DNA of 64,000 nucleotides from Escherichia coli (GTDB lineage Bacteria; Pseudomonadota; Gammaproteobacteria; Enterobacterales; Enterobacteriaceae). Position 1 is the first letter of the stretch; each line of letters begins with the position of its first letter. The stretch lies in assembly GCF_045037415.1 (NCBI RefSeq), contig NZ_CP173439.1; one strand, 5' to 3'. The notes beneath the pieces are model-generated. The model saw only the letters and a program-made list of their open reading frames with translations, did no database searches and was not told the DNA's origin. A program made the translations under genes and the position numbers. Below, one piece after another: positions 2,942 through 30,505 of this stretch.

Positions 2942-3450
2942 GATGATTGATCTGATATTATCACGGTTCGTGAATTATAGTATGTCACTATTATTTATGC
3001 TTTAGTGAACCAGAAAAAATCCCCCGTTGGTATAGGGGGATATGTAAGGAGAAATAACTTCGCAGGTGTTCTTGTTTGTATTATAACGTGAAAAGAATGC
3101 ACGCAACTTAATTAATCTGCCGTACTTCCTTTCAGTTTTCAAGATAAGGTTTATAATAAAACATGGAATGGAAGCAAGCTTTAAGGTTTCAGCTCTAAAA
3201 TTTTTAATATCTATTAACTAGCTAGTTGTTGTCCTTGTGAGCATGTTGTATATAAAAGCTAGGATAATATCCTGACCGGAGTATTCATATTCCTTATCCC
3301 CTCTGTGTTCTCAGAGGTTTTTTTCTGTATTTAATGATATGAGCTGGAATGCGATTCCGGCCCCCCCCGTTTACATAATTCTCCCTGACATACGGCACCG
3401 GAATCGCATTGATTTTGCATTGCTAATGTCTAACTGTGCTGGTGAATGTT

Positions 3451-3488
3451 GGGGGCAGTTTGGATATCGAAAATTATTGTACGTTAAG
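3451..3488 (+). repeat. 38-bp Tn3-family-type terminal inverted repeat (copy A)
   Basis: Starts GGGG, ends ACGTTAAG as in Tn3-family IRs; related copies at 5787, 13586, 27905. Confidence 0.75.
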
Positions 3489-3554
3489 GTTGTTTTTTGA
3501 CCTTGTCGGGGTCCGCCTGCGGGCAGTAGAGATCATATAAGGTATTCAATAACG

Positions 3555-3830
3555 TCATGATGCGGTTATCCCCGATACGGTAATATACCATTTTACCTGC
3601 CCGTCGGGTTCGACCAGCTTCAGGCGACGCATGACACCCAACTGCTGAGACAGGGTCGGCTGAGTGATACCGACCGCCGCTTCCAGCTCGGTCACATTCG
3701 CTTCCCCCTGGCTTAACTGACACATCAACAATAGCCGGTCGCTGTTGGCCAGTCCCCGTAGGACATCTGCTGCCCCCAGGGCTGCATTTTTCATATCAGT
3801 CTGACGTTTTGTGTCTTCATTCATGGGCAT
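3555..3830 (-). CDS. ArsR/SmtB-family transcriptional regulator (BigR/YgaV-like)
   Basis: Winged-HTH region LLLMCQLSQGEANVTELEAAVGITQPTLSQQLGVMRRLKLV; divergent from the CoADR-rhodanese gene; start codon uncertain. Confidence 0.7.
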   Translation of the reverse strand: MPMNEDTKRQTDMKNAALGAADVLRGLANSDRLLLMCQLSQGEANVTELEAAVGITQPTLSQQLGVMRRLKLVEPDGQVKWYITVSGITAS

Positions 3831-3990
3831 TGCTGGTTTCTTATATTATGTATTTTTATATAATATTGTTCAGTATAATGATAGTGGCGTAATTTTGCCA
3901 CCGTGATCTTCAGGTCTGCAGCGTCCAGCTGGACCGGGTAACTAATTATATATGGCAGATATTTTGCCCCGAGTGAACAGAGAGGATGTA

Positions 3991-5649
3991 ATGAAAATAG
4001 TGATTGTTGGTGGTGTTGCCGGGGGAGCATCCGCTGCAGCCAGGGCTCGTCGGTTATCAGAGGATGTCAGTATTGTTGTGTTTGAGCGGGGAAGCGATGT
4101 CTCTTTCGCCAACTGTGGATTGCCTTATCATATAGGCGGAAAAATTCCGTTACGGCAGTCGCTGATTCTGAAAACCCCGGAGGATTTTAAATCCCGTTTT
4201 AACATAGACGTCCGTATCCGTCATGAAGTGATGTCAGTAGACCCGGTTAATAAGATGGTGACGGTTAAAAATCTGACCTCCGGGGAGGTCTATACCGAAG
4301 AATGGGATCGTCTGCTCCTCAGTACCGGTGCCGCTCCGGTTGTTCCCCCCTTGCCCGGACTACAGGAAGCGGGTGTCTTTACACTGCGAAATCTTACTGA
4401 CATGGATGCTATCCAGGCGTGGATTGAGCAACATAATATCGCTCACACCACGCTTGTCGGGGGGGGATTTATCGGGCTCGAAGTGATGGAGGCACTGAGC
4501 GAAAGGGGGATCAGTGTGACCCTGCTGGAGATGGGGGAACAGGTTATGGCTCCGGTTGATCCTGAAATGGCATCGGCCCTGCATCAGGAAATCAGGAGTC
4601 ATGGCGTGGATCTGCGTCTCAGAACGGCGCTCACCGAGGTACTGCGGACAGAGACGGGATTCCGCGTTGCACTGTCTGACGGTGGGTTTCTGCAGACCGA
4701 CATGGTTATTCTCGCCATCGGGGTAAAACCTGAGAGCAGCCTTGCCACAGGAGCCGGGCTCGCCGTGGGTAAACGGGGAGGCATAAGTGTCAATGCCTGT
4801 ATGCAGACAAGTATCCCTGACATCTATGCCGTGGGGGATGCAGTTGAAACACCTGACCTTGTCTTTCAGGAACCCGCTAATGTTCCTCTGGCAGGGCCAG
4901 CCAACCGCCAGGGACGCATTGCTGCTGATAATATGCTCGATCGTCACAGCCTTTACCATGGCAGTCAGGGGACATCCATTTGTAAGGTATTTTCGCTGAG
5001 TATTGGCAGTGTCGGGGCGAATGAAAAGCAGCTGAAAGCCCATGGTACCCGATACGAGAAGGTTTACGTCCATGCCGCTGATCATGCCAGTTACTACCCG
5101 GGGGCAACAATGATCAGTCTGAAACTGCTGTTCAGCCCCGATACCGGTAAAATTCTCGGGGCCCAGGCGTCAGGGAAAAAAGGGGTTGATAAACGCATCG
5201 ATGTCCTGGCTGTCGTACAGCGCGCGGGGCTTACCGTTAACGATCTCGAGCATCTGGAGCTGACCTATGCTCCGCCTTTCAACAGTGCAAGGGACGTCGT
5301 TAACCAGGCTGGAATGGTGGCGGCAAATGTTATCAAGGGTGATACGGTCATCTGTCATGTCCGCGATGTGTTACAACGGGAACCGGGCAGTTATTGTTTA
5401 CTTGATATTCGTTCTCCTGCAGAACTGAAACAATTTGGTGAATATCCTGACGCGCTATCCATCCCTCTTGATTCCCTGCGGGAGAATCTTGATAAGTTGC
5501 CTGAAGATAAAGAGATTATTATCGGGTGTCAGAGTGGTCTGCGGGGGCATGTGGCATACCGTATGCTTCAGTCTCACGGCTTCCGGACATATAATCTGAG
5601 TGGTGGTTTTATAACTTGGCAGGCGGTTACGGAATCAATGAGTCAATAA
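3991..5649 (+). CDS. CoA-disulfide reductase-like flavoprotein with C-terminal rhodanese domain
   Basis: N-terminal FAD motif IVGGVAGGASAA, redox Cys in SFANCGLPY, second Rossmann fold GGGFIGLE, C-terminal rhodanese with active-site Cys in IGCQSGLRG; AGAGG RBS before ATG 3991. Confidence 0.8.
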   Translation: MKIVIVGGVAGGASAAARARRLSEDVSIVVFERGSDVSFANCGLPYHIGGKIPLRQSLILKTPEDFKSRFNIDVRIRHEVMSVDPVNKMVTVKNLTSGEVYTEEWDRLLLSTGAAPVVPPLPGLQEAGVFTLRNLTDMDAIQAWIEQHNIAHTTLVGGGFIGLEVMEALSERGISVTLLEMGEQVMAPVDPEMASALHQEIRSHGVDLRLRTALTEVLRTETGFRVALSDGGFLQTDMVILAIGVKPESSLATGAGLAVGKRGGISVNACMQTSIPDIYAVGDAVETPDLVFQEPANVPLAGPANRQGRIAADNMLDRHSLYHGSQGTSICKVFSLSIGSVGANEKQLKAHGTRYEKVYVHAADHASYYPGATMISLKLLFSPDTGKILGAQASGKKGVDKRIDVLAVVQRAGLTVNDLEHLELTYAPPFNSARDVVNQAGMVAANVIKGDTVICHVRDVLQREPGSYCLLDIRSPAELKQFGEYPDALSIPLDSLRENLDKLPEDKEIIIGCQSGLRGHVAYRMLQSHGFRTYNLSGGFITWQAVTESMSQ

Positions 5650-5786
5650 GAGATGAGGTGCCATACACATGGCACCTCATCTTCCAGATTCATTGAAAAC
5701 GTATTATATGGAATAGAAATCTACAAAAATAATTAACACCCTGGATGGTACCCTATTGCGATAATGTGGACTGTTCAAAAAACAGG

Positions 5787-5824
5787 CTTACCGTACAATA
5801 ATTCTCTATATCCAAACTGACCCC
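5787..5824 (-). repeat. 38-bp Tn3-family-type inverted repeat (copy D, inverted partner of A)
   Basis: Reverse complement GGGGTCAGTTTGGATATAGAGAATTATTGTACGGTAAG. Confidence 0.75.
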
Positions 5825-6880
5825 AATGTTCCTGAATGTAAATCTCCGTACAAAGATATCGTTGAGTTTTATATAATTCATTGTTTTTATTGTGTTTTGT
5901 TTTTTTTGGTTGTGCTGGTTTGTAGTTATAAAAAACCCCTGGGAATCCAGGGGTAGGTAAGGAAAACAAATGATACTCAGTTAGTGTTGCACTTTAAACG
6001 GGTTGAAGTATAACTCGTATTAAATGAGATGTTGAAAATAAGTGAAAACCATTGCTGGTTGCAATAGGGCAGTATGCGTAAAAAATAAATTTGTGATGCT
6101 TTTCAAAAAAACAATTAATACATGAATATTACAGCTCATATATTACAGTTTATAAAAAACTGTGTTTTATCTATTACATAGAGAAAAATTCTTATCCTGA
6201 GCTGTGAACTTGGTTGTTTCGTTTGATATATATCTTTGTAAATGTGGTTTATTATGCGGGCATTTTTTATTGAGTATTGAATCAGAATAAGTGATGCAGC
6301 TAAATTTATTTGCGTAACTATTTCATTGTCAATATTCTGACTCAATCTGACACCTATCGTTTCTCTTGGATTCCCCACTTTTGTGGTTTTTTATCCGGAA
6401 CGGGATAGTGCCAGTTGTTTTTTATCAGCCTCAGGGTATTTTGGGGCGGTTGCGAACATTGACGCATTCCACAACTAAAAAAAATTTCTCACAGACTCTG
6501 ATTCTTGCCCCGACCCTTGGTCGGTTTTTTTTTGTCCTGGCGAAACGTGAAGCTCTGAAACAGGAAACCCCGTCAGAGCGCCACGCACCAGGGGAGAAAA
6601 CTTGTCGTTTTGAGCCGTTCGGTGTTCAGAACGCACGAAACCGATCGCACATCGCTTTCGTGCATAGTTATGCAACGCCCTGAAAACGATTCTGACGCGT
6701 TTTTCTGGTTTGGCCTGGTGTTTTCTTGTCTTTTTGCGTTTTTTGCGCCAGAAAGCGATTGAGGGCGTTTTACATGGTACGTACAACGGGAGTTATGGTA
6801 AATGGATCGGGTTTTCGGGAAGGTTCGACAGGATTTGCCGTTGGGTGTAGTGTAAGCGACTGAAAAACAAACGCCCCTGA

Positions 6881-7579
6881 AATCATGTCCAGATCCGGCA
6901 GAACCAGCCTCATGCGCAGTTCTGGCTGGTTTTTGACGTTGATCGCGAGGGGGCAGCGATTGACTGGAGCGACCGGAACGCTCCCGCGCCGAACATCACC
7001 GTAAAAAATCCTGTGAACGGTCATGCTCACCTGCTCTACGCGCTCAATATCGCCGTGAGAACCGCGCCGGACAGCTCGGTTAAGGCGCTGAAATACGCCG
7101 CTGCGATTGAACGTTCGCTGTGTGAGAAACTTTGTGCTGATGTGAACTACAGCGGACTGATTTGTAAAAATCCGTTCCACCTGGAATGGCAGGTGATGGA
7201 GTGGCGAGAGGAAGCCTATACCCTCGATGAACTGGCTGATTATCTCGATTTGAGCGCCTCAGCGCGCCGTAGCATCGATAAACATTACGGGATGGGGCGA
7301 AACTGCCACCTGTTCGAAATGACGCGCAAATGGGCTTACAGGGCGATTCGTCAGGGCTGGCCCGAATTCTCACAGTGGCTTGATGCCGTGATTCAGCGTG
7401 TCGAAATGTACAACGCATCGCTTTCCGTTCCGCTTTCACCGCCTGAATGTCGGGCTATTGGCAAGAGCATTGCGAAATACACGCACAGGAACTTCACGCC
7501 GGAAACTTTCGCACAGTATGTGGCTGATACGCACACATTAACGTACGTTTTCGTTCCATTGGCCCTCACCCCCCGATAA
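6881..7579 (+). pseudogene. ColE2-type (primase-like) Rep initiator homolog with no recognisable N-terminus
   Basis: Frame is open from 6881 with no ATG until a GTG at 7013; motifs FWLVFDVD, KNPVNGHAHLLYAL, NPFH, GMGRNCHLF recalled as Rep/primase-like; preceded by about 1 kb of AT-rich non-coding DNA. Confidence 0.4.
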
Positions 7580-7747
7580 CGACCCAGGTAGCGCGCCGTA
7601 TTCCCCCCGCCGGCCGTTTTCTTCGACATGTACATCAGGCGCGGAACTCATCGGGGCGCGGGAATGAAATCCCATTCAGACTCCGGATAGATTCAAGCAA
7701 GCCCACTTATCGTCAAAATCGGTGTTGCAAAAACGGGAGTGACCATA

Positions 7748-7770
7748 GATCCGTTTTCCAAGCGGACCCC
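7748..7770 (-). repeat. Partial Tn3-family IR (outer 23 bp) matching the IR of the miniature element at 63603
   Basis: Reverse complement GGGGTCCGCTTGGAAAACGGATC equals the first 22-23 bp of the IR at 63603-63640. Confidence 0.6.
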
Positions 7771-7816
7771 ATAATATCGGCTGGTAAACATCACTCGCTA
7801 GTGCATTCTTTTTGTT

Positions 7817-7835
7817 GGTAATGATAATCATTTAC
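7817..7835. promoter_or_regulatory. Fur box upstream of chaN-like operon
   Basis: GGTAATGATAATCATTTAC resembles Fur consensus GATAATGATAATCATTATC. Confidence 0.6.
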
Positions 7836-7911
7836 ATTCATTCTTTGATGTTTTATCATAATTAATGTTTTGTCAATAAATATATGGAAACATATTGTTT
7901 CAGATGGGAAT

Positions 7912-8787
7912 ATGAGAAAGTTCATCCTTATTTCTATGATAACGTTAGCTAGTGTTAGTCTGGGAGCCTGCAGACAGAATGTCACCATAAAGCAGGATGC
8001 GCCAGGGCAGAAAGCTTTCCTGACTGACGGGCAGATTTACGATTTGCACAGTGGCAAAATTATTTCTAGCAGCGAGCTTTTGGCGGATCTTGCTACCGCT
8101 CAACATCTTATTATTGGTGAAAAACACGATAATGCCGAGCATCATCAGATTGAGCTTTGGCTTATTCAAAATTTGCTCATCCAGCGACCACAGGGGAGTG
8201 TGTTGCTTGAGATGTTGACGTCAGAGCAACAGCCCCGAGTTAACCAAGTTAAATGTTGGCTGAAAGATAATCCTGTGGTTCGAGATAGCCGTGTTCAGGA
8301 ACTACTTAACTGGCAAAAAGGGTGGTCCTGGGAGATGTATGGCGACATCGTCATGCAGCTATTACGTGGGCCTTACCCGCTGCTCAATGCCAACATTGGC
8401 CGGGAGCAGATATTGGCACTGTACAAAAAAAACGAATTTCCTAAAGGAAAAAAATCCACTGCACCTGTGGTACAAGAAGCTCTGCGTGAAACCATCATAT
8501 CTATGCATGAAGGCAACCTTGAAAGCCAGCAACTGACGTCAATGCTCTCTATTCAGCAGCAGCGGGATCGCTACATGGCCCGCCAGCTTCTGAGTGCCCC
8601 GGTACCGTCGTTGTTGATTGCAGGTGGTTATCACGCGTCAAAAAGCATGGGCGTACCGTTACACATGGAAGATCTTGCCACCGGCACCCATCCAGTGGTG
8701 TTGATGCTTGCAGAAAAAGGAATGAACATCACAGTAGATCATGCTGACTACGTGTGGTTTGTAGCGCCAGATACAACAAAAAGGTAA
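7912..8787 (+). CDS. ChaN-family (heme/iron-associated) lipoprotein
   Basis: Lipoprotein signal LASVSLGAC; GEKHD...EHH motif region typical of the ChaN family. Confidence 0.55.
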   Translation: MRKFILISMITLASVSLGACRQNVTIKQDAPGQKAFLTDGQIYDLHSGKIISSSELLADLATAQHLIIGEKHDNAEHHQIELWLIQNLLIQRPQGSVLLEMLTSEQQPRVNQVKCWLKDNPVVRDSRVQELLNWQKGWSWEMYGDIVMQLLRGPYPLLNANIGREQILALYKKNEFPKGKKSTAPVVQEALRETIISMHEGNLESQQLTSMLSIQQQRDRYMARQLLSAPVPSLLIAGGYHASKSMGVPLHMEDLATGTHPVVLMLAEKGMNITVDHADYVWFVAPDTTKR

Positions 8788-8794
8788 ACCATGG

Positions 8795-9571
8795 ATGATG
8801 AATATTCTCCACTTCTCACAGTCGGTAAAATGGAGCAGCTGGTTTATCTGTTCTCTACTGCTTCATGGACTGATTTTCCTTGCGTTTATCTGGCGTTTTT
8901 CCGAAGTTCAGCCCGCTATGTCTCCTGCACCGGCGATCATGCTGCAATGGGCAGAAATTATAGAGGCTCCTTCTTCTCCACTTTCGCTTCCGGTGGGAAT
9001 CGCTCAACAGGAGTCCGCAGTGACAGAAGAAAAGCAACAAACTGAGGACAGACAACAACGTCCTGTCACTGAAGACAGTGATGCAACCATTGAAATAACT
9101 AGGAAGAAAAAGTCATCCGATGGAGAAAAGAAAAAGACACGTCCACCTCGTAAGATAAAGGCTCAAACCAGCGACAGCAACCCCACAGCCGTTTCCAGTA
9201 ATGCTGCACCTCAGGCTCTGGTCGAATCGTCCCGTATTGCTGCGCCTTTTAACAGTGACTCAACAAAGCGAGATAATTCTGAGGCATCTTGGGAAAGCAG
9301 AGTAAAAGGCCACCTAAACCGTTATAAACGTTACCCTGGCGATGCCAGAAAACGTGCACGAACCGGCACAGCCGTCGTGACTTTTACCGTAAACACGGAA
9401 GGCACTATTGTCAGTAGTTTCTTGGAAATCTCTTCAGGAACCTTTTCTCTTGACCGCGAAGCTATTGCTGTTTTAGAACGCGCTCAACCACTTCCCAAAC
9501 CACCGCCTGAAATATTGGAGGGAGGATTATTTAAAGTAAAAATGCCGATTACCTTTAAGTTGAAGGAGTAA
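8795..9571 (+). CDS. tonB: TonB-family energy transducer
   Basis: N-terminal anchor with S...H motif (SLLLHGLIFLA), Pro/Lys/Glu-rich spacer, C-terminal TonB domain. Confidence 0.7.
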   Translation: MMNILHFSQSVKWSSWFICSLLLHGLIFLAFIWRFSEVQPAMSPAPAIMLQWAEIIEAPSSPLSLPVGIAQQESAVTEEKQQTEDRQQRPVTEDSDATIEITRKKKSSDGEKKKTRPPRKIKAQTSDSNPTAVSSNAAPQALVESSRIAAPFNSDSTKRDNSEASWESRVKGHLNRYKRYPGDARKRARTGTAVVTFTVNTEGTIVSSFLEISSGTFSLDREAIAVLERAQPLPKPPPEILEGGLFKVKMPITFKLKE

Positions 9572-9739
9572 AGGGATAATTGGCCGTTCAAGTTCATTTA
9601 ACTGAAATTTAATTTTCATTTTTATGCTGAACATTTTATCAAACTTTTCCACTGTCAAAAAAATCAAAAAGACAGTAGAACATAATTAATAAACAAATAG
9701 TTATACTTATCTTTATTAATATTATACCCAAGGAAATTT

Positions 9740-12001
9740 ATGAACGTTATAAAACTGGCTATCGGCTCAGGCATATTATTGCTCAGCTGCGGTGCTTACT
9801 CACAATCCATCAGTGAAAAAACTAATTCCGACAAAAAAGGAGCGGCAGAATTCAGTCCGCTCAGCGTTTCTGTCGGGAAGACGACCAGTGAGCAGGAAGC
9901 TCTCGAGAAAACAGGCGCGACCAGTTCCCGGACAACGGACAAAAACCTGCAATCACTTGACGCAACAGTGCGTAGTATGCCTGGTACTTATACTCAAATA
10001 GATCCTGGTCAGGGAGCAATCAGTGTGAATATTCGAGGCATGAGCGGATTTGGTCGTGTAAACACTATGGTCGATGGTATTACCCAGAGTTTTTACGGAA
10101 CCTCTACCTCCGGAACAACGACGCATGGTTCAACTAACAATATGGCTGGCGTACTTATAGATCCTAACTTACTGGTAGCAGTTGATGTTACACGCGGTGA
10201 CAGCAGTGGCTCTGAAGGGATCAACGCCCTTGCCGGTAGTGCAAATATGCGTACTATTGGCGTTGACGATGTAATATTTAACGGTAATACATATGGCCTT
10301 CGTTCACGTTTCTCTGTCGGTAGTAATGGGCTGGGACGCAGCGGAATGATCGCCCTTGGTGGAAAAAGCGACGCTTTTACGGATACGGGAAGCATTGGCG
10401 TTATGGCTGCTGTGAGCGGCAGTTCTGTGTACTCTAATTTCTCAAATGGTTCTGGAATTAACAGCAAAGAGTTTGGTTATGATAAATATATGAAGCAGAA
10501 CCCCAAATCCCAACTGTATAAAATGGATATCAGACCAGACGAATTTAACAGCTTCGAACTTTCCGCTCGAACCTATGAAAATAAATTTACACGTCGTGAT
10601 ATAACCAGTGACGACTATTACATTAAATATCATTACACCCCTTTTTCTGAATTAATTGACTTTAACGTAACGGCCAGTACCAGTCGCGGTAATCAAAAGT
10701 ATCGTGATGGCTCGCTGTATACTTTCTACAAAACCTCAGCGCAAAATCGTTCTGACGCGCTGGATATCAACAATACCAGCCGGTTCACTGTCGCGGACAA
10801 TGACCTGGAGTTTATGCTGGGCAGCAAACTGATGCGTACCCGCTATGACCGGACCATTCACTCAGCGGCGGGCGACCCGAAAGCGAATCAGGAATCGATC
10901 GAGAACAATCCGTTCGCACCCTCCGGCCAGCAGGATATTTCAGCGCTGTATACCGGGCTGAAGGTTACGCGCGGCATCTGGGAGGCAGATTTCAATCTCA
11001 ACTACACACGTAACAGGATCACAGGGTACAAGCCCGCCTGCGATTCACGCGTTATCTGCGTGCCACAGGGTAGCTACGATATTGACGATAAAGAGGGTGG
11101 CTTCAACCCTTCAGTTCAGCTTTCTGCTCAGGTAACACCATGGCTTCAGCCGTTCATTGGCTACAGCAAATCCATGCGCGCCCCGAACATCCAGGAGATG
11201 TTCTTCTCTAATTCAGGAGGCGCATCCATGAACCCATTCCTGAAGCCTGAACGTGCAGAAACCTGGCAGGCGGGTTTTAACATTGATACCAGAGATTTAC
11301 TGGTCGAACAGGATGCCCTGCGCTTTAAGGCTCTGGCGTACCGCAGCAGGATCCAGAACTACATCTACAGCGAGTCTTATCTGGTTTGTTCTGGAGGTCG
11401 TAAATGCAGTCTGCCTGAGGTGATTGGCAATGGCTGGGAGGGCATTAGCGATGAATACAGCGACAATATGTACATCTACGTTAACTCGGCAAGCGACGTT
11501 ATCGCAAAGGGCTTCGAACTGGAGATGGATTATGATGCAGGTTTTGCTTTTGGTCGACTCTCTTTCAGCCAGCAGCAAACAGACCAGCCAACCTCCATCG
11601 CCAGCACCCACTTTGGCGCAGGGGATATAACCGAACTGCCCAGAAAATACATGACGCTGGATACTGGTGTTCGCTTCTTCGATAACGCGTTGACCCTGGG
11701 CACTATCATAAAATACACAGGCAAGGCTCGTCGCCTGTCGCCTGATTTTGAGCAGGACGAACATACCGGCGCAATAATCAAACAGGATTTGCCGCAGATC
11801 CCAACGATTATCGATCTCTATGGTACTTACGAGTACAACCGCAACCTGACACTGAAACTTTCGGTACAAAACCTGATGAACAGAGATTATTCGGAGGCGC
11901 TGAATAAGCTCAACATGATGCCAGGTCTTGGTGACGAAACCCACCCAGCCAATTCCGCGCGTGGCAGAACATGGATATTTGGCGGGGATATTCGTTTCTG
12001 A
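9740..12001 (+). CDS. TonB-dependent outer-membrane receptor
   Basis: Signal peptide, plug and barrel layout, C-terminal aromatic residue (RF); MRAP...NPFL region resembles the heme-receptor FRAP/NPNL motifs but lacks the conserved His. Confidence 0.75.
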   Translation: MNVIKLAIGSGILLLSCGAYSQSISEKTNSDKKGAAEFSPLSVSVGKTTSEQEALEKTGATSSRTTDKNLQSLDATVRSMPGTYTQIDPGQGAISVNIRGMSGFGRVNTMVDGITQSFYGTSTSGTTTHGSTNNMAGVLIDPNLLVAVDVTRGDSSGSEGINALAGSANMRTIGVDDVIFNGNTYGLRSRFSVGSNGLGRSGMIALGGKSDAFTDTGSIGVMAAVSGSSVYSNFSNGSGINSKEFGYDKYMKQNPKSQLYKMDIRPDEFNSFELSARTYENKFTRRDITSDDYYIKYHYTPFSELIDFNVTASTSRGNQKYRDGSLYTFYKTSAQNRSDALDINNTSRFTVADNDLEFMLGSKLMRTRYDRTIHSAAGDPKANQESIENNPFAPSGQQDISALYTGLKVTRGIWEADFNLNYTRNRITGYKPACDSRVICVPQGSYDIDDKEGGFNPSVQLSAQVTPWLQPFIGYSKSMRAPNIQEMFFSNSGGASMNPFLKPERAETWQAGFNIDTRDLLVEQDALRFKALAYRSRIQNYIYSESYLVCSGGRKCSLPEVIGNGWEGISDEYSDNMYIYVNSASDVIAKGFELEMDYDAGFAFGRLSFSQQQTDQPTSIASTHFGAGDITELPRKYMTLDTGVRFFDNALTLGTIIKYTGKARRLSPDFEQDEHTGAIIKQDLPQIPTIIDLYGTYEYNRNLTLKLSVQNLMNRDYSEALNKLNMMPGLGDETHPANSARGRTWIFGGDIRF

Positions 12002-12069
12002 TGACAATTTCCGCTAGGTTCAGACAATACGTTTTCTCTCTTATGTCAATTTTATTGCAGGAACGAAAA

Positions 12070-23970: not shown

Positions 23971-24007
23971 ACGTATCCTCTCGTCTAAAACAACGGCTAT
24001 ACAACGA

Positions 24008-25954
24008 TTATGGGTTATTTTTTATCGTCTCCCCGGGAACCGCGCTTTTGCGCCGCATCACCCACAGCGCCACCAGCGCCGCGAGCAGCAATACGACCTG
24101 CGGTAACAACGTTTCCACGTAGGGATAAATCCCCAGCCAGCTGATTTCAGGGAAGCCGTTAATCAACGTAGGCTGGAACAGTTTGCCTTCCACCAGTTCC
24201 AGAACGCCTTTGCCCGCAAAGACGAAGGCCATCAGATACATGAAACTGCCGGTAAACATAAAGAAGGGTTTCAGCGGCAGGCGCACTACTGAGTAACGCA
24301 TCACCAGCCAGGCGAGCAGCAGCACCACGCAGCCAATCACAAAACCGGCGCCAATCGCCATATGGCCGGATACCGTGTTTGCATCGCCAATCAGAGCGTA
24401 ATAGAACAGCACCGTTTCCGCCCCTTCGCGGTACACCGCCAGGAAGCTGGTCAGCCATAGTCCGACCAGGGAGCCTCGCGACAGGGAATGAGACAGTTTG
24501 CCTTCCAGCCAGGCTTTCCAGTGGCGCGCTTCCACTTTGGACAGCAGCCAGTAACTCATAAAGAACAGCATCACGACGGCAATCAGCATCGTTATGCCTT
24601 CCAGCAGTTCACGGCTGGCGCCGGAGTTAGTAAACAGCATCTGGAAGATAGCGGCGGTGATGACGCTGGCGATCAGCGCCACAATTACCGACTGACGAAT
24701 AAGCGGCAGCTTATCCTGATGGTTGTTTTTCACCATGTAGGCCACGATTGCCGCAACAATCAGCAGCGCTTCCAGCCCCTCGCGCACGATGATCATCAGA
24801 CTATAGAGCAGCAGACTCCACTGGGTTTCTTCGCCTTCGCCCAGCATCGTCACGGCTTTTTGCAGATCCTGCGCCAGCGCGCTGGCCTCTGCATTCAGGC
24901 GCTCAACCGGCTGACCGGCCTTCATCAGACTGACCAAGCGGGTAAAATACGCCTCCAGCGTGGTTTTAAATGCCGAATCGCGAGAGCCGATTTTGTTTTC
25001 CATGCCGCTGGCTTCGAAGCGGTCGAAGTAGGTATCCTGGATATCCAGAATCGCATTCTTCGCATCGCCGCCCTGATAGCGCGCTATCGCGTCCTGAATG
25101 CTCTGGTTAATTCCCGTCGTCACCTCAGCCCAGTCGGTGCGGTTATTTCCCTCGTCCGCCGCCGGAATGTTGTCTGCGCTTTGCGCTGCGGCAACCTGCT
25201 GATCGTCACGGGTGGTTGGCAAGCCGGGTAAGATATCCTCGATATCCTGTAGCAGCGTAGTGACCTGATAGGAGACATCGTTGAGATGGTCAGGTTGCGC
25301 GGTCAGCGCAATCAGGGATGAGAATTGTTGGTTAATGGAGGCGGCATCTTTTGCAGAACGGTTTTGTCTGAGGGACATCTCCATCTCAGAGTTTTTAAAG
25401 CCCTGATAGTGCGCCTGTTGAACGTGCTGACTGGCAACGCTGTAATTCCCGGCCTGATATTCAGTGACCGCCTGCGCCAGCAGATCGTCGATCGTCCTGA
25501 AACTCTCCTGCCAGTGAACGGCAATGTCGTCCCTGGACAGCGCGTTGTGCTGCTCTTCGGCCACCAGACGATGTCCGCCATCCAGCACCGGTTCCACTTC
25601 GCGCAGTGCGGCTTTCAGCCAGTCAATGCGCGCCTGGACGTCAGCGAGCGGTTTTTTCTCGCCAATCATTCGACGGATCTCGCCGAATGCGCTCTCCATC
25701 TCGTAACTTTTGCGCGCGGAAATGTTGATGCGGATCGGCCCTTCCAGGTTCTCGAACACCTCAAAATAGGCCATTTGTACCGTGCGGCGCGCCTCGTCGG
25801 CATGCTGTTGCTGATAAAGTTCCGCTGTTTTATCAAGACGTTGCTCGATATCTTCAATCAAAGGCGCATAATTCGTCGACGCCCAGACACTCATGCTTAT
25901 AAACAAGCCAAAGAGAGTAACCAACAAAGAGTTACGAAAGTTACGCACGTGCAC
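24008..25954 (-). CDS. Ftr1-family iron permease with N-terminal periplasmic domain (FetM-like)
   Basis: Signal peptide, about 350-aa periplasmic domain, then permease with two REGxE motifs (REGLEA, REGAET). Confidence 0.75.
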   Translation of the reverse strand: MHVRNFRNSLLVTLFGLFISMSVWASTNYAPLIEDIEQRLDKTAELYQQQHADEARRTVQMAYFEVFENLEGPIRINISARKSYEMESAFGEIRRMIGEKKPLADVQARIDWLKAALREVEPVLDGGHRLVAEEQHNALSRDDIAVHWQESFRTIDDLLAQAVTEYQAGNYSVASQHVQQAHYQGFKNSEMEMSLRQNRSAKDAASINQQFSSLIALTAQPDHLNDVSYQVTTLLQDIEDILPGLPTTRDDQQVAAAQSADNIPAADEGNNRTDWAEVTTGINQSIQDAIARYQGGDAKNAILDIQDTYFDRFEASGMENKIGSRDSAFKTTLEAYFTRLVSLMKAGQPVERLNAEASALAQDLQKAVTMLGEGEETQWSLLLYSLMIIVREGLEALLIVAAIVAYMVKNNHQDKLPLIRQSVIVALIASVITAAIFQMLFTNSGASRELLEGITMLIAVVMLFFMSYWLLSKVEARHWKAWLEGKLSHSLSRGSLVGLWLTSFLAVYREGAETVLFYYALIGDANTVSGHMAIGAGFVIGCVVLLLAWLVMRYSVVRLPLKPFFMFTGSFMYLMAFVFAGKGVLELVEGKLFQPTLINGFPEISWLGIYPYVETLLPQVVLLLAALVALWVMRRKSAVPGETIKNNP

Positions 25955-25970
25955 ACCGCCAAAGAATACA

Positions 25971-25988
25971 AATGATAATTATTATCAT
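25971..25988. promoter_or_regulatory. Fur box upstream of the Ftr1/P19 operon
   Basis: AATGATAATTATTATCAT, 17-35 bp upstream of the permease start. Confidence 0.55.
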
Positions 25989-26240
25989 ATCTTTTTGTCG
26001 CGTTGTACATGACCTGGATCATAAAAATGTCAGCAGACGACAAGTTATGTAAACTTATTTCATCAAATCGTGATGAACACACACATTATGCGTTGATAAA
26101 AGGGACGTTATCTCCCTGTTTTTCTCATGGAATTAACGGCAAGGCAGGCGCGGTAACAGAGGAATAAATCCCCCTGCCGACAGTGATATTATTCATTATC
26201 GGCAGGCAGAAATAAAACGCGTTATTGCGTACAGCAATAT

Positions 26241-27002
26241 TCAAAGATTAAGGTTATTTCGATCGCTGGCAAGACGCTGTAAGAATTGACCATATCCCTG
26301 CGGCCCCATCCAGTAGTTAATACTTTTCTCAACGCCGGTTGATGTCAACGTCGCACCGGAAATACCGTCAACGGTATATTCATCGGCATGTTCAGGTTTA
26401 TCCTGTACTATTTTCAATGCAGGATGTCCGCTGTTATCTAATAATCGTTTCCCTGGCCACTGTTTGCGCCAGTTGGCGTCTTCCACCCTAGCCCCCAGAA
26501 ACGGCGTTTCCCGTTGCTGATAATAATACAGATTTCTCACCGTACGACCGTCCAGCCCCAGAGCAAGAAACGCATGCATCATGGATTTCGCGCCCTTACC
26601 GGTAACTGGAATGATAACCTGCTGAATTTCATTATTTTTATCTTTCACAAAGAACACATCCGCCACCGTACAGCGCTGACGAACCTGCGCTGGGTCGCGT
26701 TCAGGGGCAAGTTTTTCACACTTCTGCCGCGCGGTGTCCGCGCTGCTGCCAGCCACCAGTTCGCCGGAATCTAAATTAACATGGCGTTGAATAATATAAC
26801 GATGATAGAGCGTTTCGACTGATTTTTTATCCTGGGTCTCTGATTTCATCAGGCCCGCAGCGTGTAAAATTGCCGCCTGTTTTTCCTCCTCTGTCGGCTC
26901 CGTCATTTCTCCCTGGAACAGCATAAACCATGCCGCCGCCGCAACAAAAATAAGGACACAAAGCACCATCATTGATGCAACAATAATTTTACCCTTGCGC
27001 AT
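26241..27002 (-). CDS. FMN-binding-domain protein (NqrC/RnfG-like), membrane-anchored
   Basis: N-terminal TM anchor; flavinylation-type motif VDGISGATLTSTGV. Confidence 0.6.
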   Translation of the reverse strand: MRKGKIIVASMMVLCVLIFVAAAAWFMLFQGEMTEPTEEEKQAAILHAAGLMKSETQDKKSVETLYHRYIIQRHVNLDSGELVAGSSADTARQKCEKLAPERDPAQVRQRCTVADVFFVKDKNNEIQQVIIPVTGKGAKSMMHAFLALGLDGRTVRNLYYYQQRETPFLGARVEDANWRKQWPGKRLLDNSGHPALKIVQDKPEHADEYTVDGISGATLTSTGVEKSINYWMGPQGYGQFLQRLASDRNNLNL

Positions 27003-27238
27003 TGAATTGTTATCCCTGTCAAAATGGAAATCGAAAAAATCGCCTGAACGTATCACAGACTTTCATTCAATTAAAACAGATATGCCATTATCAATTCAGG
27101 TTTGCAACGTCAGGCAGCGGTAAAAAATAATAACTGGCGTCGGTAAAAAAGCAGCAAAAATAACAGAAAACACGCTCTCCGCTCGTTTTACACATCCTTA
27201 CAATGGGTTAAAAAATGCCGGGTTTCCCCGGCACGCTA

Positions 27239-27745
27239 TCAAAACATGGCTGCCCGCCACAGACGTAACTTCATGCCCCAGTAGCTGGTCCAGCCGCTGG
27301 TCGTAGTTACCACCTGCCCCTTCGACACCACCACCAGCGTTGGCGTGACGCTGATTTCCCAGTTTCGTGATATCTCACCGCCGCTATCATTCACGACGGG
27401 GAACGTCACCCTTTTACGCGATAACCAGCGGGAAACCTCCCCGTCATTACCGGAACGCAGCGCGATGGTCATGACGCTCTCCCCTTCCGACTGCAAACGG
27501 GCGACATCCGGCGTGGTGAAACGGCAGATACCGCACCAGCTCGCCCAGAAGTAGAGCAGCACCGGGCGTTCTTCACTGATCGACGCCAGCGTTACGGTTT
27601 CCCCGTCCAGCGTATGCAGCGGCGTGCTGTCAAACATGGCCGGCATCTGCGGAGAACGCCAGACATCCAGCAGGATTATCACGCCAGCCAGCAGAACCAG
27701 TAAGATCGCGCCTTCACGCAGCCAGCGGCGCAGTTTACTGAGCAT
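27239..27745 (-). CDS. ScsD/TlpA-like thioredoxin-fold protein
   Basis: TM anchor plus WASWCGIC motif; rho-independent terminator (GCCGGGGAAACCCGGC then T-run) downstream. Confidence 0.7.
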   Translation of the reverse strand: MLSKLRRWLREGAILLVLLAGVIILLDVWRSPQMPAMFDSTPLHTLDGETVTLASISEERPVLLYFWASWCGICRFTTPDVARLQSEGESVMTIALRSGNDGEVSRWLSRKRVTFPVVNDSGGEISRNWEISVTPTLVVVSKGQVVTTTSGWTSYWGMKLRLWRAAMF

Positions 27746-27904
27746 GGGCCACCGCCAGTTTTTCTTTCACCACCGCCTCAAGGGTCTCCCACGATACCGC
27801 GCCGGGGATCATCTCGTCGCCAATGATGGTTGCCGGCGTCCCCTGAACGCCAACCAGCCGGGCGAGTTGCAGATTGGTGCTCAACGTCTCCATGCTTTTC
27901 TCAT
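27735..27904 (-). pseudogene. DsbA/ScsC-like thiol-disulfide oxidoreductase, C-terminal remnant
   Basis: C-terminal DsbA-like sequence GVQGTPATIIGDEMIPGAVSWETLEAVVKEKL overlapping the scsD-like start; 5' portion replaced by IR copy C. Confidence 0.6.
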
Positions 27905-27942
27905 CGGGGTCAGTTTGGATATAGAGAATTATTGTACTATAA
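27905..27942 (+). repeat. 38-bp Tn3-family-type IR (copy C, solo)
   Basis: GGGGTCAGTTTGGATATAGAGAATTATTGTACTATAAG, 36/38 identical to copy D. Confidence 0.75.
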
Positions 27943-28198
27943 GGGCTTCCCCGGCATGTCAACGCCGGTGTTTACGGTTTCTGTCTGCACTATAGTAAAA
28001 AAATAAAGGGGAGAGACTGCGGTACTATAAACGGTCATGATGAATCGTCATCGATTCGGACCCTGATGAAAGACGCTCGTGAGGCTCTAGTTCGTTAGTC
28101 GGGTACACTTGCCCTGTACAATAAGCAGATATACCTCACGGGGTCTAACCCTTTATCATCAACGAGTTGCAGATCAGATGGTCATACAGCTTTGTACT

Positions 28199-28512
28199 TT
28201 AGCTGGCTGAGTACAACCTGAAATCATCACCGTAATGCAATGATGCCCAGCACAGTCTTGCATTTTTGGCAGCGATGGCAACAACAGCGCGCCAGTATCC
28301 TCTGCGTTCGACCAGTGAGCAGACCCAACGACTGAATAAATCAGTCCTTTTCTCCGCCCCGATCAGTACCGAGCGGGCACCCTGAACCAGAAGTGTTCTC
28401 AGATACGAATCGCCAGCTTTCGTTATCCTGCCAAGCTTCGACTTTCCGCCGCTGCTGTACTGCGATGGTGTCAGTCCCAGCCAGGCTGCCAGCTGGCGCC
28501 CATTCTTAAAAT
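28199..28512 (-). pseudogene. IS110-family transposase C-terminal fragment, cut by IS26
   Basis: LGRITKAGDSYLRTLLVQGARS is typical of IS110/IS1111-family transposase C-termini; abuts the IS26 end at 28513. Confidence 0.55.
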
Positions 28513-29332
28513 GGCACTGTTGCAAAGTTAGCGATGAGGCAGCCTTTTGTCTTATTCAAAGGCCTTACATTTCAAAAACTCTGCTTACCAGGCGCATTTC
28601 GCCCAGGGGATCACCATAATAAAATGCTGAGGCCTGGCCTTTGCGTAGTGCACGCATCACCTCAATACCTTTGATGGTGGCGTAAGCCGTCTTCATGGAT
28701 TTAAATCCCAGCGTGGCGCCGATTATCCGTTTCAGTTTGCCATGATCGCATTCAATCACGTTGTTCCGGTACTTAATCTGTCGGTGTTCAACGTCAGACG
28801 GGCACCGGCCTTCGCGTTTGAGCAGAGCAAGCGCGCGACCATAGGCGGGCGCTTTATCCGTGTTGATGAATCGCGGGATCTGCCACTTCTTCACGTTGTT
28901 GAGGATTTTACCCAGAAACCGGTATGCAGCTTTGCTGTTACGACGGGAGGAGAGATAAAAATCGACAGTGCGGCCCCGGCTGTCGACGGCCCGGTACAGA
29001 TACGCCCAGCGACCATTGACCTTCACGTAGGTTTCATCCATGTGCCACGGGCAAAGATCGGAAGGGTTACGCCAGTACCAGCGCAGCCGTTTTTCCATTT
29101 CAGGCGCATAACGCTGAACCCAGCGGTAAATCGTGGAGTGATCGACATTCACTCCGCGTTCAGCCAGCATCTCCTGCAGCTCACGGTAACTGATGCCGTA
29201 TTTGCAGTACCAGCGTACGGCCCACAGAATGATGTCACGCTGAAAATGCCGGCCTTTGAATGGGTTCATGTGCAGCTCCATCAGCAAAAAGGGATGATAA
29301 GTTTATCACCACCGACTATTTGCAACAGTGCC
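28513..29332 (-). mobile_element. IS26
   Basis: 14-bp terminal repeats GGCACTGTTGCAAA at 28513-28526 and inverted at 29319-29332; 820 bp; Tnp26 ORF. Confidence 0.95.
28565..29269 (-). CDS. tnpA: IS26 transposase Tnp26
   Basis: 234-aa ORF starting MNPFKGRHFQRDIILWAVRWYCKYGISYRELQEM. Confidence 0.95.
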   Translation of the reverse strand: MNPFKGRHFQRDIILWAVRWYCKYGISYRELQEMLAERGVNVDHSTIYRWVQRYAPEMEKRLRWYWRNPSDLCPWHMDETYVKVNGRWAYLYRAVDSRGRTVDFYLSSRRNSKAAYRFLGKILNNVKKWQIPRFINTDKAPAYGRALALLKREGRCPSDVEHRQIKYRNNVIECDHGKLKRIIGATLGFKSMKTAYATIKGIEVMRALRKGQASAFYYGDPLGEMRLVSRVFEM

Positions 29333-30505
29333 ATTCTGAGCACTGTCGCGCTCGACGCTGTCGGCATCGGCCTGATTATGCCGGTGCTGCCGGGCCTCCT
29401 GCGCGATCTGGTTCACTCGAACGACGTCACCGCCCACTATGGCATTCTGCTGGCGCTGTATGCGTTGATGCAATTTGCCTGCGCACCTGTGCTGGGCGCG
29501 CTGTCGGATCGTTTCGGGCGGCGGCCGGTCTTGCTCGTCTCGCTGGCCGGCGCTGCTGTCGACTACGCCATCATGGCGACGGCGCCTTTCCTTTGGGTTC
29601 TCTATATCGGGCGGATCGTGGCCGGCATCACCGGGGCGACTGGGGCGGTAGCCGGCGCTTATATTGCCGATATCACTGATGGCGATGAGCGCGCGCGGCA
29701 CTTCGGCTTCATGAGCGCCTGTTTCGGGTTCGGGATGGTCGCGGGACCTGTGCTCGGTGGGCTGATGGGCGGTTTCTCCCCCCACGCTCCGTTCTTCGCC
29801 GCGGCAGCCTTGAACGGCCTCAATTTCCTGACGGGCTGTTTCCTTTTGCCGGAGTCGCACAAAGGCGAACGCCGGCCGTTACGCCGGGAGGCTCTCAACC
29901 CGCTCGCTTCGTTCCGGTGGGCCCGGGGCATGACCGTCGTCGCCGCCCTGATGGCGGTCTTCTTCATCATGCAACTTGTCGGACAGGTGCCGGCCGCGCT
30001 TTGGGTCATTTTCGGCGAGGATCGCTTTCACTGGGACGCGACCACGATCGGCATTTCGCTTGCCGCATTTGGCATTCTGCATTCACTCGCCCAGGCAATG
30101 ATCACCGGCCCTGTAGCCGCCCGGCTCGGCGAAAGGCGGGCACTCATGCTCGGAATGATTGCCGACGGCACAGGCTACATCCTGCTTGCCTTCGCGACAC
30201 GGGGATGGATGGCGTTCCCGATCATGGTCCTGCTTGCTTCGGGTGGCATCGGAATGCCGGCGCTGCAAGCAATGTTGTCCAGGCAGGTGGATGAGGAACG
30301 TCAGGGGCAGCTGCAAGGCTCACTGGCGGCGCTCACCAGCCTGACCTCGATCGTCGGACCCCTCCTCTTCACGGCGATCTATGCGGCTTCTATAACAACG
30401 TGGAACGGGTGGGCATGGATTGCAGGCGCTGCCCTCTACTTGCTCTGCCTGCCGGCGCTGCGTCGCGGGCTTTGGAGCGGCGCAGGGCAACGAGCCGATC
30501 GCTGA
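29294..30505 (+). CDS. tetA: Tet(A)-type tetracycline efflux MFS transporter, 5'-truncated by IS26 and in frame with an ATG inside IS26
   Basis: Sequence from LSTVALDAVGIGLIMPVLPGLLRDLV to GQRADR matches class A TetA; native first ~10 codons replaced by IS26-derived MISLSPPTICNSAI; function not established. Confidence 0.7.
   Translation: MISLSPPTICNSAILSTVALDAVGIGLIMPVLPGLLRDLVHSNDVTAHYGILLALYALMQFACAPVLGALSDRFGRRPVLLVSLAGAAVDYAIMATAPFLWVLYIGRIVAGITGATGAVAGAYIADITDGDERARHFGFMSACFGFGMVAGPVLGGLMGGFSPHAPFFAAAALNGLNFLTGCFLLPESHKGERRPLRREALNPLASFRWARGMTVVAALMAVFFIMQLVGQVPAALWVIFGEDRFHWDATTIGISLAAFGILHSLAQAMITGPVAARLGERRALMLGMIADGTGYILLAFATRGWMAFPIMVLLASGGIGMPALQAMLSRQVDEERQGQLQGSLAALTSLTSIVGPLLFTAIYAASITTWNGWAWIAGAALYLLCLPALRRGLWSGAGQRADR

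Follow-up and report, generated by a model that had tools for sequence, protein, structure and literature searches.

A probable three-layer mobile-element scar at a truncated scsC gene: Tn3-family repeat stub, IS1111-group insertion sequence and IS26

Introduction

The insertion sequences (ISs) IS4321 and IS5075 are reportedly found inside the 38-bp terminal repeats of Tn21-family transposons, as Partridge and Hall are said to have described in 2003. Both belong to the IS1111 group, insert site-specifically, in one orientation and without target duplication, carry subterminal repeats and a non-coding region downstream of the transposase gene, and are often found truncated in resistance regions. 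The behaviour of IS5075 in Tn21-type repeats has been discussed in terms of safe harbours (PMC8269217). IS1111-family elements have terminal extensions of 3 bp on the right and 6–7 bp on the left, and the IS5708 group of ISfinder comprises IS5708, ISEc76, ISSm1, ISCfr26, IS1618 and ISLad6 (PMC11187229 and its supplement). Insertion of IS1111/IS110 elements is directed by a seekRNA or bridge RNA that is encoded in the non-coding region downstream of the transposase gene and presents two short guides in an internal loop; the 5′ guide pairs with the strand to the right of the insertion point, the 3′ guide equals the left flank, and the guides change with the target (PMC11187229; PMC11208160). A member of the IS5708 group in a Tn3-family transposon is documented by Tn6399b, which is Tn6399a (Tn6901 of Rts1)::IS1618 (PMC6339943).

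Two further described systems meet at the locus studied here. In IncF multiresistance regions, IS26-mediated adjacent deletions leave IS26 without a target duplication, truncated neighbours on both sides and nested endpoints in related plasmids. The copper-tolerance operon scsABCD is found on Salmonella and Citrobacter chromosomes, and scsC and scsD have been named as copper-tolerance genes of plasmid pRS218 (PMC4155114).

We analysed a 64,000-nucleotide stretch of Escherichia coli contig NZ_CP173439.1 (the window), in which a DsbA/ScsC-like reading frame, a terminal inverted repeat (IR), an IS110-family transposase fragment and IS26 follow one another (Table 1). We read the locus, with a probability of roughly 85%, as a three-layer mobile-element scar made up of the end of a Tn3-family element, an RNA-guided IS and IS26.

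Table 1. Features of the locus, with positions in the window. L005 is a contig of Klebsiella pneumoniae plasmid p52984-161.7; L009 and L047 are described in the text.
Feature	Position	Strand	Basis
Citrobacter koseri-like chromosomal segment, 10.8 kb	17113–27905	−	homology to L047, L009 and other Citrobacter
scsD-like thioredoxin-fold gene, intact, 168 aa	27239–27745	−	open reading frame; thioredoxin/TlpA-type NCBIfam matches
scsC remnant, codons 152–207 and stop of a 207-codon gene	27735–27905	−	DNA identity to intact scsC
Outer 32 bp of a 38-bp Tn3-family terminal IR	27906–27937	+	32/32 to 5793–5824 (−)
Right-hand 575 bp of an IS5708/IS1618-group IS (~1369 bp)	27938–28512	−	99.3% identical to the complete copy in L005 (6039–7407)
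IS right terminus: 3-bp extension (27938–27940) and 12-bp subterminal repeat (27941–27952)	27938–27952	−	pairs with the left repeat
seekRNA/bridge-RNA-like module (predicted) in the IS non-coding region	28057–28157	−	guide-target complementarity, covariation, stem
3′ part of the IS transposase gene, last 104 of 340 codons and stop	28199–28512	−	NF033542; aligns to L005 6301–6614
IS26, 820 bp, 14-bp terminal repeats GGCACTGTTGCAAA and Tnp26 gene	28513–29332	−	sequence; transposase open reading frame

Results

A 32-bp stub of a Tn3-family inverted repeat

A 38-mer on the plus strand (GGGGTCAGTTTGGATATAGAGAATTATTGTACTATAAG; 27906–27943) matches 5787–5824 on the minus strand at 36 of 38 positions, and no chance match to it arose in 100 dinucleotide-preserving shuffles. 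Two further, more diverged copies start at 3451 and 13586 on the plus strand. The sequence-only reading had described a complete 38-bp IR with this 36/38 score; the score stands, but the repeat lies one base to the right of the 27905–27942 given there, and only its outer 32 bp are transposon IR. The last six bases (TATAAG) are the terminus of an IS, which resembles the GTTAAG or GGTAAG of the IR and thus accounts for both mismatches. The copy at 13586 was considered as the carrier of a decayed IS and rejected, as 7 nt (TATAAGG) align and no more.

GGGG-tipped repeats of ~38 bp are common to the ends of DDE_Tnp_Tn3 elements. The stub begins GGGGTCAG; it meets scsC with its GGGG tip and once had the interior on its right, where IR bases 33–38, which should end in TAAG and lead into the interior or tnpA, are absent together with that interior. 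Neither a 5-bp target duplication nor an inverted partner of this end was found in the window. The flank outside the stub is TCATC, and the sole inverted copy in the window (5787–5824) is flanked by AATGT; a pairing of these two as the ends of one insertion was discarded on these flanks, and the DNA between them would moreover be plasmid backbone. The IR at 27906–27937 is a stub and not a functional end.

The stub differs by two nucleotides (ATAGAGAATT, not ATCGAAAATT) from the tnpA-proximal IR of Tn6399b-like transposons (30/32 in contigs L005/L080, L076 and L078), which leaves room for a parent other than Tn6399. For the Tn6399b-like element in L080, a search allowing ≤6 mismatches over 11 kb did not recover the second IR. 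Which kind of Tn3-family element left the stub has two answers, and we consider a non-autonomous parent (a miniature or passenger-only element mobilised in trans) possible, if clearly the less probable than a transposase-bearing transposon. The same 32 bp form the right IR of a 2.4-kb element without tnpA in this very window (3451–5824) and also serve as one of the IRs that bound a 256-bp element on a Salmonella plasmid (L077), while the tnpA-proximal IRs of full transposons are of the other variant. A few differences between the left and right IRs of a transposon are common, however, and this variant may come from a full transposon at its tnpA-distal end; with nothing surviving to the right of IR base 32, the locus itself speaks neither for nor against a non-autonomous parent.

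The repeat tip abuts scsC in DNA of C. koseri type

The gene interrupted at the repeat was traced through contigs encoding an identical 168-aa ScsD protein. Most of these were IncF-type contexts and one was chromosomal (L009, 2.49 Mb), where scsD lies beside an intact scsC in the order cbpA/cbpM-like, scsA-like, scsB (DsbD-like, 628 aa), scsC, scsD, FMN-binding NqrC-like, FTR1, P19 and FtrD-like. Comparison with this scsC (4388–5011) gave 171 bp kept in the window, with 100% DNA identity leftward from 27905 and none rightward; the remnant starts at L009 position 4841, and L009 4841–10507 is 98.9% identical to window 27905–22242. The alignment ended at 27905 for every Citrobacter or Salmonella homologue that reached the break. 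The DsbA-family frame (...TDP/DEKSMETLSTN...) indeed ceases to be ScsC exactly at the IR, as the sequence-only reading had noted: alignment with intact homologues mapped the break to codon 151/152, with homology ending at the base before the repeat. From the first codon past the repeat, the remnant matches chain residues 137–190 of Salmonella ScsC (PDB 4gxz; E 2e-25), with 47 of 54 aligned residues identical.

As in the chromosomal scs operon, scsD follows scsC on the plasmid with overlapping stop and start, and it is the first complete gene past the scar. Unlike chromosomal scsABCD, the plasmid lacks scsA, scsB and the 151 5′ codons (73%) of scsC, and thus cannot encode the ScsB–ScsC redox pair. 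scsD and the iron-uptake operon behind it are still intact.

The DNA to the left of the break holds scsC′, scsD, the NqrC-like FMN-binding gene, FTR1, P19, an FtrD-like gene, an ABC transporter, a TlpA-like gene and a truncated agp. Window positions 27905–21750 are 98.8% identical to C. koseri NCTC10786 (L047), which is itself 98.5% identical to L009 and whose scsC appears frameshifted in that assembly. In Citrobacter species without the FTR1 cluster, the gene after scsD is agp-like and aligns to window 17835–17113, where the agp homology stops. The segment is bordered by the IR stub on the right and, on the other side, by a truncated histidine phosphatase gene beside an IS5-family element. 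On this sequence identity, 17113–27905 derives from a C. koseri-like chromosome. Since the whole stretch from scsC to agp is of this origin, the IR junction may mark how the Citrobacter DNA was captured, and not an insertion into a gene set that was already plasmid-borne.

The junction between the remnant and the IR was present in 675 of 5,426 complete E. coli genomes and in 661 PLSDB plasmids, and the first 32 bp of the repeat with the sequence following it recurred in 2,757 plasmid records across Enterobacterales. By contrast, the 2.85 kb before the break in L009 (scsA, scsB and 5′ scsC) had no megablast match in the 5,426 complete E. coli genomes. In PLSDB, a search for plasmids with the uninterrupted gene gave none of this lineage and, at best, homologues of 67–70% identity on Serratia, Klebsiella, Enterobacter, Rahnella and Cronobacter plasmids. 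No partner IR, 5-bp target duplication or 5′ scsC fragment was found in either collection, and an exact 30-mer across the uninterrupted scsC site had no match in the GTDB species-representative genomes.

These searches bear on how the junction was formed. Because the break coincides exactly with the GGGG tip, we favour a junction made by a transposase. Adjacent deletions made by Tn3-family elements stop precisely at the IR tip, and the plasmid holds several copies of this IR family; a resident element could thus have produced the junction by intramolecular replicative transposition (adjacent deletion or inversion) into a complete plasmid-borne scsABCD–FTR1 set. We regard this as an unlikely course of events, at perhaps one chance in a few, since such an intact plasmid-borne stage left no trace: no PLSDB plasmid and no complete E. 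coli genome carries scsA, scsB or 5′ scsC of this lineage. No partner end, reciprocal junction or target duplication survives, and the insertion step itself would have taken place on a chromosome or on a plasmid. The proposal of a Tn3-type element that had entered the thioredoxin gene set and was later truncated thus holds for the Tn3-type end abutting a 5′-truncated scsC upstream of Ftr1/P19 and for the later truncation, and the insertion is its inferred part. A reciprocal junction would read ...CTGACCCC (the reverse-complement IR tip) followed by TCATCCAGCGTAACC (5′ scsC with a TCATC duplication).

An IS1111-group insertion sequence occupies the repeat

From 27938 onwards the sequence is that of an IS (TATAAGGGCTTCCCC). 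The retained 575 bp comprise the right terminus, the whole non-coding region (27938–28198, 261 bp, downstream of the transposase gene) and the last 104 transposase codons. The frame at 28199–28525 on the minus strand matched positions 247–341 of 343 of NF033542 (NCBIfam, IS110 family RNA-guided transposase; E 4e-31). The complete copy in L005 has the full 340-aa transposase gene, and its product is 95% identical to that of IS1618, 87.6% to that of IS5708 and 39% to that of IS4321. The right subterminal repeat, GGGGAAGCCCTT in IS orientation, pairs with the left repeat of complete copies, AAGGGACTTCCCC. The terminal extensions are GAATGG(A) on the left (6–7 bp) and ATA on the right (3 bp), of which the right end alone is present in the window. 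A check of 27943–28198 for an IS1111-type end was thus positive.

Complete copies define the insertion point. The uninterrupted IR at 3451 runs ...TTGTAC/GTTAAGGTTGTTTTTTGACC (TTGTAC GTTAAG GTTGTTTTTTGACC), whereas the interrupted IR in L005 has the 1369-bp IS between ...TTGTAC and GTTAAGGTTATTTTTTGACC. In this K. pneumoniae plasmid (L005/L080), IR bases 1–32 are followed by the IS, GTTAAGGTTATTTTTTGACC, a Tn3-family tnpA, tnpR and fghA-frmA-frmR. The IS therefore lies between IR positions 32 and 33 (with a 1-nt ambiguity), and its flanks rejoin into an uninterrupted IR with no duplicated bases beyond that ambiguity. Insertion point and orientation were identical in the window, in both copies of a Klebsiella sp. 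megaplasmid (L004), in L005, in Yersinia pestis pMT1 (L076, where the IS is annotated as IS1618) and in a Serratia IncHI2 plasmid (L078). With its DEDD/IS110-type transposase, its subterminal repeats and asymmetric extensions, a non-coding region with a putative guide, and site- and orientation-specific insertion without target duplication, the element belongs to the IS1111 group.

The same comparison speaks against taking the IR as a complete 38-bp repeat in which ...GTACTATAAG leads into a non-IS transposon interior, with the IS110-family gene merely cargo or an unrelated internal insertion. The 36/38 match and the terminal TAAG, shared with Tn3-family IRs, would suit that reading, as would the copy at 13586, which likewise reads ...GTACTATAAGG. 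Yet in L005, L076 and L078 the true inner IR (GTTAAG and interior) resumes beyond the 1369-bp IS, directly before the tnpA end; uninterrupted copies read GTAC/GTTAAG or GTAC/GGTAAG; many plasmid copies match the window through IR base 32 only; and the TATAAGGGCTTCCCC terminus of the IS is conserved as far as IS5708 and a Burkholderia relative, although these have other targets. We consider a complete repeat highly improbable. The sequence-only reading had the interior of the element facing right into an IS110-family fragment cut by IS26. The fragment and the cut are there, but the IS is an insertion into the IR and not cargo.

A guide RNA-like module matches the insertion site

Within the non-coding region of the IS we predict a seekRNA/bridge-RNA-like module. 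Its guide 1 (UUAUUGUAC, 9 nt, 28116–28124) is complementary to IR positions 24–32, beside the insertion point; in IS orientation the guide reads TTATTGTAC, and its complement in the IR, GTACAATAA (bases 24–32), directly abuts the IS right end. Guide and flank covary over three target classes (TATTGTAC/GTACAATA, TATCCTAC/GTAGGATA and ACTAAGCGC/GCGCTTAGT): IS1618 combines guide 1 CTATTGTAC with right flank GTACAATA, IS5708 has the second pair, with two compensatory changes, and a Burkholderia glumae relative has the third. Guide 2, located 3′ of guide 1, equals in relatives the left flank followed by GAA (CTTAAC-GAA, TTAAC-GAA and CCGCC-GAA). In the window it is CUAACGAAC (28090–28098), i.e. a weaker CTAACGAAC, which fits its target (TAACG and flanks) less well than that of IS1618. 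The guides lie on opposite sides of an internal loop that is capped by a small variable hairpin and closed by a conserved stem, CGUGAGG/CCUCACG, with three compensatory pairs. An Rfam scan of 27600–28600 at E ≤ 1 gave no match, and single-sequence folds were not more stable than shuffled controls, which gives the RNA module no thermodynamic support.

The placement of the putative RNA downstream of the transposase gene, the two guides in an internal loop, their change with the target, and the pairing of the 5′ guide with the right-hand strand and identity of the 3′ guide to the left flank all resemble the seekRNA and bridge RNA systems; compared with those, the RNA of the IS5708 group is predicted here from complementarity and from covariation over three target classes. 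Comparison of these copies suggests that insertion into the IR is guided by an RNA of this type, predicted to be encoded downstream of the transposase gene. Since both guides need both IR flanks, the IS would have inserted into an IR that was still complete.

A promoter scan gave a weak outward promoter-like match (9 of 12 positions). We think it very doubtful that the retained IS end drives transcription of scsD and FTR1/P19, or that it supplies an orphan guide RNA in trans. If it did, the outward site would replace the lost native scs promoter for scsD and the FTR1/P19 iron-uptake operon, and the orphan guide, together with IS5708-group transposases elsewhere in the cell, would lead to insertions into this Tn3-type repeat family.

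IS26 ends the retained IS fragment

As had been proposed, the transposase fragment is cut by IS26, here an element of 820 bp with 14-bp repeats and Tnp26; PGAP gives the same name in identical plasmids. Its flanks, CTTAAAAT on one side and ATTCTGAG on the other, are not an 8-bp target duplication, so this IS26 is a deletion or recombination endpoint, and on its far side lies a 5′-truncated tetA-like gene. In other junction-bearing contigs (IncF), the same IS26 end occupies at least four other positions (2 bp past IR base 32, ~27990, ~28225 and ~28496), compared with 28512 here. These endpoints form a nested deletion series typical of IS26-mediated adjacent deletion, and they also show that the IS remnant is not under selection. 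In all these respects the window shows nothing unusual against known IS26 deletions of IncF plasmids.

The plasmid scsC is a pseudogene

The intact ScsC of L009 is a 207-aa protein with a signal peptide and a CPYC motif at residues 66–69. A protein scan of GTDB species representatives found full-length homologues (~207 aa) in more than 40 species, including Citrobacter (≤88% aa identity), Salmonella, Cedecea and Enterobacter. The protein thus does not naturally begin at the break, and no homologue naturally beginning or ending there, which would have spoken against a truncation, was seen. A search with the 58-aa fragment, by contrast, returned other fragments only and no full-length protein. 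ScsC proteins are recognised by CXXC in a thioredoxin fold and a signal peptide; the remnant begins at residue 152, past CPYC, and has neither. On these grounds of sequence the plasmid scsC is a non-functional pseudogene. PGAP labels it 'DsbA family protein, incomplete, missing N-terminus', and the IS110-family fragment 'transposase, incomplete'. That the short frame encodes a genuine small protein starting naturally at the break, as might be thought from the open reading frames of 52–75 aa that many records list under the names DsbA family or ScsC and from the description of pRS218 as encoding scsC and scsD (PMC4155114), can be dismissed for practical purposes: the full homologues are all ~207 aa with CPYC at residues 66–69, the remnant lacks active site and signal peptide, the IR and IS terminus encode the first 19 codons of the 75-aa frame, PGAP marks it incomplete, and the intact C. 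koseri-like gene already contradicts such a reading.

Discussion

The evidence is best arranged in three steps. In the first, C. koseri-like DNA would have been joined at codon 151/152 of its scsC to a Tn3-family end by the transposase of that element, either by simple insertion or by a cointegrate or adjacent deletion that also brought scsC′-scsD-FTR1/P19-agp′ onto an IncF plasmid; scsA, scsB and the part of scsC before codon 152, with its signal peptide and CPYC, would have been lost. In the second, an IS5708/IS1618-group IS would have entered the IR between positions 32 and 33, guide 1 pairing with bases 24–32 and guide 2 with the inner bases. In the third, IS26 took away 794 bp from the left of the IS, IR bases 33–38 and all that remained of the transposon; a 32-bp IR stub and 575 bp of IS survive, with IS26 joined to a truncated tetA. 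The IS26 deletion is evident at the locus itself and the entry of the IS is established by comparison with complete copies, whereas we infer the order of the first two steps.

The closest counterpart is Tn6399b, a Tn3-family transposon that has IRs of this family and an IS of the same group at the tnpA-proximal one; the transposon in L005/L080 (frmR-frmA-fghA-tnpR-tnpA) fits its description. Compared with Tn6399b, the window retains 32 bp of IR, in a 2-nt variant, and 575 bp of IS. The resemblance to IS4321/IS5075 extends to group, site specificity, single orientation, the lack of a target duplication, subterminal repeats and the downstream non-coding region. The two differ in the transposase, in the IR family targeted (GGGGTCAGTTTGGATAT...) and in the insertion point, which in a direct comparison is at about position 24 for an IS4321 copy in contig L079. 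The different IR positions suggest that two IS lineages use Tn3-family repeats as safe harbours independently.

All components of the locus are of described kinds: a Tn3-family IR, an IR-targeting IS1111-group IS, IS26 deletions and an scs fragment. Minor points that may be unpublished are the remnant status of scsC, the C. koseri origin of the segment, and the targeting of IR positions 32 and 33 by the IS5708 group together with its covariation. Current understanding of these element families is unchanged, and the value of the locus lies mainly in annotation and plasmid history.

For annotation, the scsC of this locus should be corrected to a pseudogene. What is called 'ScsC' on IncF plasmids of the pUTI89/pRS218 and ST131 types has 56 codons left and no active site, and claims of copper tolerance from 'scsC/scsD' should rest on scsD alone. 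Repeat-based annotation can, moreover, be misled here, as the IS terminus gives an interrupted IR the look of a complete one. For plasmid history, a Tn3-family end bounding one side of the 10.8-kb FTR1/P19 segment suggests a route of capture. The locus is also a clean natural example of an IS5708/IS1618-group IS with a predicted RNA guide targeting a Tn3-family repeat, and it extends the IS4321/IS5075 paradigm to a second IS lineage and a second IR position.

Elements bounded by the 38-bp IR

Two inverted copies of the 38-bp Tn3-family terminal repeat (IR), the family to which copy C beside the truncated scsC belongs, bound a 2.4-kb element in the window. Its cargo consists of genes for an ArsR-family regulator and for an FAD-dependent oxidoreductase whose C-terminus is of the rhodanese type, and no transposase gene is present within it. 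The two IRs are differing sequence variants, and a direct repeat (AATGTT) lies on both sides of the element; at 6 bp, this repeat differs from the 5-bp target duplication usually generated by Tn3-family elements.

Features of the window and of a comparison plasmid
Feature	Position	Strand	Details
IR-bounded element, 2.4 kb	3445-5830		IRs 3451-3488 (+) and 5787-5824 (-), inverted, IR family of copy C
cjrABC-senB region	7000-13500
Tn2/Tn3-type IR remnant	13521-13557		GGGCTGACGCTCAGTGGAACGAAAACTCACGTTAAG; ~30 bp upstream of copy B
IR copy B	13586-13616		31 bp, 1-nt deletion
Sigma-70-like site, weak	28024-28051	(-)	ATGACG-16-TATAGT, 9/12
tetA-type MFS efflux gene	29333-30505		immediately after IS26
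IR-bounded unit, 256 bp	384-639 of L077 (Salmonella Senftenberg plasmid pSSE-ATCC-43845)		inverted IRs, IR family of copy C

The same IR family was found in other plasmids. The 256-bp unit of the Salmonella plasmid, one IR of which is identical to copy D (the 5787-5824 repeat) over 32 bp and the interior flank, looks like a Tn3-derived miniature element. A copy of IS5708, an element of the same group as the IS1111-group insertion sequence (IS) that interrupts copy C, lies ∼800 bp from this unit in a different IR-like target (GGGTCCGCTTGGAAAAAGGAAATTATCCTAC). On the Klebsiella sp. LTGPAF-6F megaplasmid (L004, 6001-8156), two inverted IR stubs are separated by 2.16 kb, each with the IS right end directly inward. 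Two complete IS copies would not fit into this spacing, and the arrangement suggests that two copies, one in each IR of a small element, recombined with each other. Within the window, copy B is followed by TATAAGG, the outermost 7 nt of the right end of the IS, beyond which the sequence, downstream of senB, is unrelated. A second IR interrupted by the IS may have left this trace after being deleted almost completely.

Surroundings of the IS right end and IS26

The sigma-70-like site lies inside the IS right end and is directed outward, towards the IR and scsD. This putative promoter might contribute to scsD/FTR1 transcription. On the other side of IS26, the tetA-type gene, putatively tetA(A) of Tn1721, lacks its first ∼10 codons and begins ...ILSTVALDAVGIGL.

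Extent of the Citrobacter koseri-like DNA

The C. koseri-like segment terminates at ∼17113, inside a gene for an agp-like histidine phosphatase. According to the PGAP annotation of identical plasmids, the C-terminus of this gene product is missing, and the truncated gene is adjoined by a frameshifted ISKpn26-family IS5 element. The paper on pRS218 (PMC4155114) reports that senB is also present in C. koseri. Taken together with the derivation of the scsC'-agp' segment from C. koseri, this hints that further parts of the plasmid accessory region may stem from this species.
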